Part shown: in pieces, positions 1,669 through 2,069 of the stretch
Numbering within the stretch: position 1 is the stretch's first letter
How the letters are laid out: each line of letters opens with the position of its first letter
DNA from: a virus
Lineage: Duplodnaviria > Heunggongvirae > Uroviricota > Caudoviricetes
Strand: one strand, 5' to 3'
DNA: 4,340 nucleotides
Virus record (IMG/VR): IMGVR_UViG_2695420687_000008
Program-made: the position numbers and the translations under genes
Notes under the pieces: model-generated
Databases searched by the model: none
Seen by the model: only the letters and a program-made list of their open reading frames with translations
What the model was told of the DNA's origin: nothing

Positions 1669-1872
1669 ATGGCAATTAAGCATTTTCCTGTCGTTCGTTT
1701 CACCTCCAGAGGACGTGAATACGAAGTTGACGAACGCCTGATTACCACAATCGACAAACACCGTTCAGAAAAGGATGCACATCACATCTATCTCACTGAC
1801 GGCACTTACTTCTGCGCCACGAATGTGGTGCGGGTGAACCTTATCAGACAGGTACAGGAGTCACGCAGATGA
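1669..1872 (+). CDS. hypothetical protein, 67 aa (cluster gene D)
   Basis: Strong SD AAGGAGG (1658-1664) 4 nt before ATG 1669. Protein MAIKHFPVVRFTSRGREYEVDERLITTIDKHRSEKDAHHIYLTDGTYFCATNVVRVNLIRQVQESRR. Stop overlaps the next start (ATGA at 1869-1872). The track ORF begins at GTG 1618, but the SD supports 1669. Confidence 0.55.
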   Translation: MAIKHFPVVRFTSRGREYEVDERLITTIDKHRSEKDAHHIYLTDGTYFCATNVVRVNLIRQVQESRR

Positions 1873-2069
1873 CCATTCTGGACTACATCGCTGCCAATCC
1901 GGGTTGTAGCGGTGGAGAAATCGCCGCAGCACTGAATACACCAACCACAACCATTAATGCGGAGCTACGCCGTCTCTGGCGCAGCGGTTCAGTCATAAGA
2001 AAAGAGCGCAAAACAGGCGGTCGCTTTTCTTATCAGGTAAACCCGATGCCGTTTGGGTGTAAGAGATAA
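1869..2069 (+). CDS. small winged-helix DNA-binding protein, 66 aa, FaeA/PapI-like pattern (cluster gene E)
   Basis: ATG 1869 overlaps the stop of gene D; CAGGAG about 10 nt upstream. Protein MTILDYIAANPGCSGGEIAAALNTPTTTINAELRRLWRSGSVIRKERKTGGRFSYQVNPMPFGCKR. Layout (ILDYI..NPG.S..EIAAAL, then helix, then basic wing RKERKTGGRFSY) resembles small wHTH regulators such as PapI/FaeA; this is pattern inference, not a search result. Confidence 0.5.
   Translation: MTILDYIAANPGCSGGEIAAALNTPTTTINAELRRLWRSGSVIRKERKTGGRFSYQVNPMPFGCKR

Follow-up and report, generated by a model that had tools for sequence, protein, structure and literature searches.

Two short, overlapping genes, here called D and E, lie in a 4,340-nt stretch of a caudoviricete virus record (IMGVR_UViG_2695420687_000008), and their arrangement raises the question of whether they form a functional unit, such as a toxin and its antitoxin, or are neighbors within a longer phage operon. 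In what follows, the window is this whole stretch at its full length. We favor the second answer, with a probability of roughly 75%: D and E, the counterparts of gp08 and gp09 of phage P88, would be separate accessory early proteins of a lytic operon.

The 4.3-kb window contains 51 open reading frames (ORFs) of at least 30 aa, so that the length of an ORF alone is no proof that it is a gene. Gene D runs from an ATG at 1669 to a TGA that ends at 1872 (+ strand; 67 aa; P88 gp08, WP_000985159-like), and its Shine-Dalgarno sequence AAGGAGG (1658-1664, +), 4 nt before the ATG, is kept in E2348/69, P88 and phage Chuche. Gene E (+ strand; P88 gp09, WP_000153684-like) starts with an ATG at 1869 that overlaps the D stop codon (ATGA, 1869-1872), and it has a ribosome-binding site of its own, AGGAG (1856-1860, +), within the 3' end of D and 8 nt before its start. 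An earlier note, made from the letters of this DNA, had described the reading frame of D with its AAGGAGG and the overlap of E with the D stop, and both descriptions were borne out. Pairwise comparisons of homologous loci by the Nei-Gojobori method gave ratios of nonsynonymous to synonymous substitution rates (dN/dS) of 0.02-0.32 for D and 0.08-0.26 for E. Because the homologues of both differ mostly at synonymous sites, with dN/dS well below 1, D and E are real genes and not chance ORFs, and both are under purifying selection.

Window positions 930-2061 align over their full length with Escherichia coli chromosomes at 98.6-98.9% identity (98.6% for strain E2348/69), and the DNA of D and E (1669-2061) is 99.0% identical to that of E2348/69. 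The D protein is 100% identical to that of Xuanwuvirus P884B11, differs by one residue from that of E2348/69, and is 87% identical to that of P88; the E protein is 91% identical to that of P88, and the window copy is 97% identical to E of E2348/69 over the part that they have in common. These alignments indicate that D and E are gp08 and gp09 of a P88-like prophage (Xuanwuvirus, P2-like, Peduoviridae). In E2348/69, where the equivalents of D and E are WP_000985159 and WP_000153684, the prophage carries leftward an integrase and a C-type repressor, and rightward a gene at the position of cox, a DUF4761 gene, a 95-aa gene, a DUF4754 gene, a 37-aa ORF, D and E, followed by an ash fragment, a 121-aa gene, the replication endonuclease (gpA) and ParM. 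The same gene order is found in phage P88 and in CP-933T of O157:H7 EDL933. D and E occupy the middle of the early lytic operon, between cox and replication gene A, among about a dozen short and tightly packed genes, and this match to the early operon of P2-like prophages upheld the phage-derived context that the earlier note had proposed. Fourteen phage records carry D, with close homologues of E within the same group, and the DNA of D and E is matched by 1333 of 5426 complete E. coli genomes (about a quarter).

The copy of E in the window is incomplete. Native E has 81 aa, and the first 64 of its codons are present (1869-2061, +), the last 17 being cut off by a junction at 2061/2062, where prophage homology ends in the alignment of the window with the E. 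coli prophage. After CCGTTTGGGTGTA, the phage reads on as GCAACCCACTAA, whereas the window reads AGAGATAAATACC. Given this junction, the last two codons (K and R) and the stop of the E frame are junction DNA; the non-native end, comprising the last part of codon K, codon R and the stop, lies at 2062-2069 (+) and is host DNA. The end at 2069 and the length of 66 aa that had been given for E are therefore not native, and the E of the window is probably a non-functional copy truncated by the sequence junction, in which the C-terminal helix is absent.

As to what kind of protein E is, it matches two Pfam families above threshold, MarR_2 (29.4 bits, cut-off 27) and HTH_24 (28.1 bits, cut-off 21.9), and it falls in phrog_1687 of PHROGs ('MarR family'). 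The AlphaFold2 model of a native, 81-aa E homologue (predicted local distance difference test score, pLDDT, 82.7) has helices at residues 3-9, 15-21 and 26-39 and wing strands at 42-46 and 53-57, then a linker of lower confidence and a C-terminal helix at 67-80. Its core superposes on the winged helices of MarR, MepR, SlyA and SmtB to about 1 Å over 55-60 residues, covering about 40% of those proteins. MarR-family regulators are, however, about 140-150 aa long, and the N- and C-terminal helices of their dimer and ligand pocket are missing from E (target-normalised TM-score 0.36-0.41); in addition, no divergent target gene adjoins E. Full membership of the MarR family was rejected, since the winged helix-turn-helix (wHTH) alone matches while size and dimer helices do not, and on the strength of the model E is predicted to be a stand-alone winged helix rather than a complete MarR protein. 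The earlier assignment of E to the FaeA/PapI type survived in its first half, the winged helix, which MarR_2, HTH_24 and the model all support. The fimbrial regulators PapI and FaeA are of the same size class as E (one winged-helix domain, about 80 aa), but E is encoded in a phage early operon and not at a fimbrial switch. No FaeA match was found in Pfam at an E-value of 1 or below, the PapI structure (2htj) gave an E-value of 0.2 in a profile search, and PapI is not among the 50 Foldseek matches listed for E, so that FaeA/PapI membership was rejected as well.

Within the E family, conservation is highest in the C-terminal tail. A profile search returned 215 proteins from Escherichia, Klebsiella, Citrobacter, Salmonella, Raoultella and phages, with generic names throughout, and relatives at 28-46% identity are encoded by lambdoid phages, Shiga toxin (Stx)-converting ones among them, with their genes placed either in the leftward early region or directly after the replication genes. 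In an alignment that reaches down to 32% identity, the tail holds 7 of the 13 invariant positions (P61, G63, N66, P67, F72, N73 and L76). The motif, P.G..NP....FN..L, occupies native residues 61-81 (positions 10120-10182 of the 19.1-kb locus L001), is missing from the window, and extends from P2-like to lambdoid phages, including Stx1 phages, Serratia phage Eta and Klebsiella phage ST15-VIM1phi2.1. It is kept across these phages of enterobacteria even where identity in the winged helix has fallen to about 25-30%.

Beyond its own family, E shows a distant resemblance to Ren of phage lambda, which Toothman and Herskowitz are said to have found, in 1980, to protect lambda from Rex exclusion. The PHROG of Ren, phrog_142 ('Ren-like exclusion protein'), is matched by six of eight members of the E family, the best at an E-value of 7.6e-8, and weakly by E of E2348/69 (81 aa, E-value 0.051) and by the truncated copy of the window (E-value 0.034). 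Comparison of the E family with Ren by hhalign gave a probability of 88% and an E-value of 3.3e-6 over 46 wHTH columns at 20% identity, and lambda Ren itself matches phrog_1687 at an E-value of 1.5e-10. Both proteins are small (80-100 aa), stand-alone phage winged helices encoded in an early operon close to replication genes, and a homologue of E in a Klebsiella phage occupies the exact position of ren in lambda, directly after the replication genes. The C-terminal motif of the E family, on the other hand, has no alignment to Ren. We take the apparent similarity of the E family to lambda Ren as a lead and not as membership. A preprint (bioRxiv 10.1101/2021.04.19.439022) describes a probable role of Ren in replication and an interaction with the Rex proteins.

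The relatives of D are far fewer. It had no family match in Pfam, NCBIfam or PADLOC, and its PHROG (phrog_3459) is labelled "unknown function". A word-indexed search with D returned only Escherichia-type sequences, at identities of at least 69%, and an exhaustive HMMER profile search of 1.84 billion representatives returned 17 matches, all of them small phage-operon proteins except for one repeat protein of 1016 aa. The genuine distant homologues (37-48% identity) are small genes of P2-like early operons. In the AlphaFold2 model (pLDDT 86.4), D has five beta strands and no helix, and a sequence-profile search of the PDB gave weak matches to Sso7d (E-values 0.11-0.3), while BFVD gave no match at an E-value of 1e-3 or below. 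The searches and the model suggest that D is a lineage-restricted, small SH3-like beta-barrel: like Sso7d and other small barrels of this kind it is predicted to be a five-stranded beta protein of about 65 aa, but it lacks their C-terminal helix, and the likeness is generic and assigns no function. The repeat protein among the matches, P0128, contains repeated units of about 140 aa, and five of its stretches align with the middle of the D profile (the best at profile positions 19-53, E-value 1.2e-8); the segment that it has in common with the profile is NHFIYLADGTKVCFTYV.

Examination of D and E in other genomes showed that each occurs without its partner. In E. coli A17, D stands alone, directly before gpA. 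In the isolated and viable phage Chuche and in a Salmonella prophage (locus L008), D (94% identity) is followed, through an ATGA overlap, by a gene of phrog_4144; because the same gene comes after E in CP-933T, the arrangement amounts to a simple loss of E. Of the E. coli carriers beyond those with both genes (about 11% of carriers), the ones that were sampled match the query at bases 1-204/207 alone, and so have D without E, and the distant homologues of D have a DUF4406 or a Phage_ASH gene directly after them. Conversely, in lambdoid phages (Stx, Serratia and Klebsiella) the relatives of E are encoded without D, and their tail is retained. Where both genes are present, the combinations of their alleles vary, with a D of 96% identity beside an E of 68% in one locus (L016) and a D of 48% beside an E of 70% in another (L018), so that the alleles assort independently. 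The overlap of the two genes is not peculiar to them either: in P88, 4-nt overlaps join gp06 to gp07 and run from gp08 through gp12, and an overlap common to most neighboring genes is no sign that D and E form a unit. In consensus scans, neither a sigma-70-like site nor an inverted repeat was found ahead of D, although a weak promoter could escape such scans, and the sole operator-like inverted repeat found is at the C/cox switch. We also looked for a natural fusion of the two proteins (a Rosetta stone) in phrog_19053, the profile of which matches D at 84-134 and E at 162-243, and rejected it; the only chimera seen, P0025, consists of E residues 1-27 and D residues 9-67 and looks like a frameshift or recombinant product and not a fusion. 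D and E are best seen as syntenic, co-expressed and separable accessory early genes.

On this reading, D and E would be transcribed from the early promoter beside the operator of the C repressor, and only once immunity has been lifted, and they would be translated by coupling, as their neighbors would be. Each would then act as a separate accessory early protein. E would most likely bind DNA through its third helix and a basic wing (R34, R35, R38, R44, K45, R47, K48 and R52), and its invariant tail would either dimerize or hold a conserved partner, probably from the host. Because the tail is conserved across phages that differ in their other genes, D is a less likely partner than a host protein or E itself. 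E may adjust transcription, replication or escape from exclusion early in lytic growth, as is thought for its distant relative Ren, and D probably binds a protein or nucleic-acid target of its own. A bolder extension, which we regard as quite improbable, is that the tail of E serves as a docking peptide to which a conserved protein of the host would bind, that E (and perhaps Ren-type proteins generally) are small phage adaptors, which early in lytic growth would tether or sequester a factor of the host, and that D is a lineage-specific helper.

Several observations weigh against our interpretation of D and E as separate accessory proteins. Both genes are present in 1185 of the 1333 E. coli genomes that carry them (about 89%), and in E. 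albertii the order of D before E and the ATGA overlap are kept at identities of 48% for D and 70% for E; given this conserved adjacency, a functional link between the two is still conceivable. The combination in E of a DNA-binding domain with a flexible, conserved C-terminal helix is one found in many antitoxins. The likeness to Ren is confined to the wHTH, and two other wHTH families in PHROGs score similarly. The AlphaFold2 structures of D and E are predictions from shallow alignments, and searches of the literature on P88, PhiSM, CP-933T, Xuanwuvirus and ren turned up nothing on the function of gp08 or gp09.

Whatever D and E do in an intact prophage, it is an even bet whether the copies in this window are the dead remnant of a chimeric or rearranged fragment. 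The window (1-4340) is a mosaic of pieces that have no relation to each other. It begins with an antisense fragment of tuf (1 to about 267, the boundary to the next piece being read by eye) and an unmatched stretch (about 268-352), and continues with an antisense fragment of apbC (353-923), a run of N (924-929), the prophage fragment (930-2061), host DNA of the rdlD-yhjV region and of the dppF side (2062-4219), and an N-rich stretch (4220-4232) followed by more sequence. The apbC fragment is just 90% identical to that of E. coli, which suggests an Escherichia-like host other than E. coli. Searches of E. coli genomes and phages gave no match for 2062-2158, but a metagenome contig (JFBN01432093.1) is about 99% identical to the window from 2062 through the rdlD-yhjV region and differs from it before 2062; the window is therefore host chromosomal from 2062 onward. 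Consistent with a remnant, the phage fragment covers 930-2061 only, with the run of N on one side and host DNA that starts inside E on the other; truncated fragments of other, housekeeping genes (tuf and apbC) are joined to it; the window holds only the part of the operon from the hypothetical gene to E, with the operon promoter, cox and gpA all outside; and the exact junction at 2061/2062 was not found in a search of the metagenome collection. Against a remnant, the frame and ribosome-binding site of D are intact and its protein is, as noted above, unchanged from that of P884B11, and if the junctions are assembly artifacts, an intact prophage may exist in the actual genome. The way in which the pieces are joined points to a chimeric or scaffolded assembly, and an assembly chimera, though unproven, is the simplest reading of the window.

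Features that cross the junctions of such a mosaic, among them the stop codon of E and a nearby hairpin, should not be read as biology. The hairpin at 2098-2126, which the earlier note had put forward as a possible target of E, sits in host DNA outside the phage operon, as the metagenome contig indicates, and the proposal is not supported. Further into the host DNA, a full-length rdlD antisense RNA lies at 2216-2281 (+; Rfam RF01813, 86.5 bits) and belongs to the Ldr/Rdl type I toxin-antitoxin system; no Ldr-type ORF of 35 aa was found among ORFs of at least 20 aa on either strand of 2062-2300. This is a genuine toxin-antitoxin-related element that adjoins D and E, and it has no relation to them.

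Another possibility is that the two genes cooperate. D could be a co-factor or modulator of E, such as an anti-regulator or a specificity subunit, in a non-toxic pair for which translational coupling sets a fixed ratio. The adjacency and the 4-nt overlap survive across divergent alleles of both genes, most carriers have the two together, and in locus L005 a distant homologue of D is overlapped by a gene upstream that encodes a weak helix-turn-helix. We nevertheless consider a cooperating pair unlikely, as D and E each occur without the other, their alleles assort independently (L016 and L018), and synteny and overlaps run through the whole operon, so that the adjacency is not specific to the pair.

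A toxin-antitoxin pair, which the earlier note had raised as one reading of the layout and in which D would be a small toxin and E an autoregulating, DNA-binding antitoxin that acts through its C-terminal tail, in the reverse order of type II systems such as HigBA, HicAB and MqsRA, is very improbable: it has in its favor that D and E are small and translationally coupled, with the small first gene overlapping that of a DNA-binding protein as in those systems, and that they are together in most carriers, but D has no toxin homology in Pfam, NCBIfam or PADLOC and no toxin fold, intact D is under purifying selection without E in Chuche, Salmonella and E. coli A17, the tail stays invariant in relatives of E from lambdoid phages without D, the pair lies in mid-operon with no promoter of its own found ahead of it, and the overlap is operon-wide. 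Family searches, the predicted fold and the natural separability of the genes all rule against it, and we return to D and E as separate accessory early genes.

The remainder of the prophage fragment fits the early operon of E2348/69. It starts at 930, right after the run of N, with a 94-aa gene of phrog_3800 (934-1218, +), followed by the DUF4754 gene (1230-1472, +; 80 aa), which was identified by Pfam PF15946 (E-value 2.8e-54) and synteny, and by a hydrophobic ORF of 37 aa (1469-1582, +), which has an ATGA overlap with the DUF4754 stop and is annotated as "membrane protein" in P88. This ORF is kept in all related prophages and is possibly a small membrane peptide of the early operon.

Between the 37-aa ORF and D, alignment revealed a conserved spacer element of 28 nt, ATCCGCATTCGCGGAGGTATTCGCACAC (1627-1654, +; L001 9698-9725), which contains a hairpin (TCCGC-ATTC-GCGGA, 1628-1641) and the direct repeat CATTCGC/TATTCGC. 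It precedes whichever gene occupies the slot, which is D here and a 138-aa gene of phrog_9338 in CP-933T and Salmonella, and it looks like a terminator on the minus strand only. A role as a repeated binding site for E was considered and rejected, there being a single copy in locus L001, which ends at the portal gene. The element could mark the boundary of a mosaic segment or act as a regulatory site. In a related P2-like early operon (L004, positions 1-8219, a Logan contig of SRR33623564), a homologue of D lies amid other accessory genes, encoding an Rv2179c-like exonuclease, a ParE_like protein, a D12-class DNA methyltransferase and a DUF4406 protein, and this operon illustrates the free exchange of cargo at the D slot.

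D and E are already catalogued at near-identity in RefSeq, in PHROGs and in phage P88, and a described phage genus shows the same layout. The finding is a common one, the layout is unremarkable, and the idea of a toxin-antitoxin pair does not hold. What gives the genes their interest is their spread, since about one complete E. coli genome in four has them in a prophage, enteropathogenic E2348/69 and enterohemorrhagic O157:H7 among them. The main lead is the sharply conserved tail of E, together with its distant link to lambda Ren, in a widespread family; if E did act as an adaptor, its role might be, for example, in escape from exclusion or defense, or in aid to replication.
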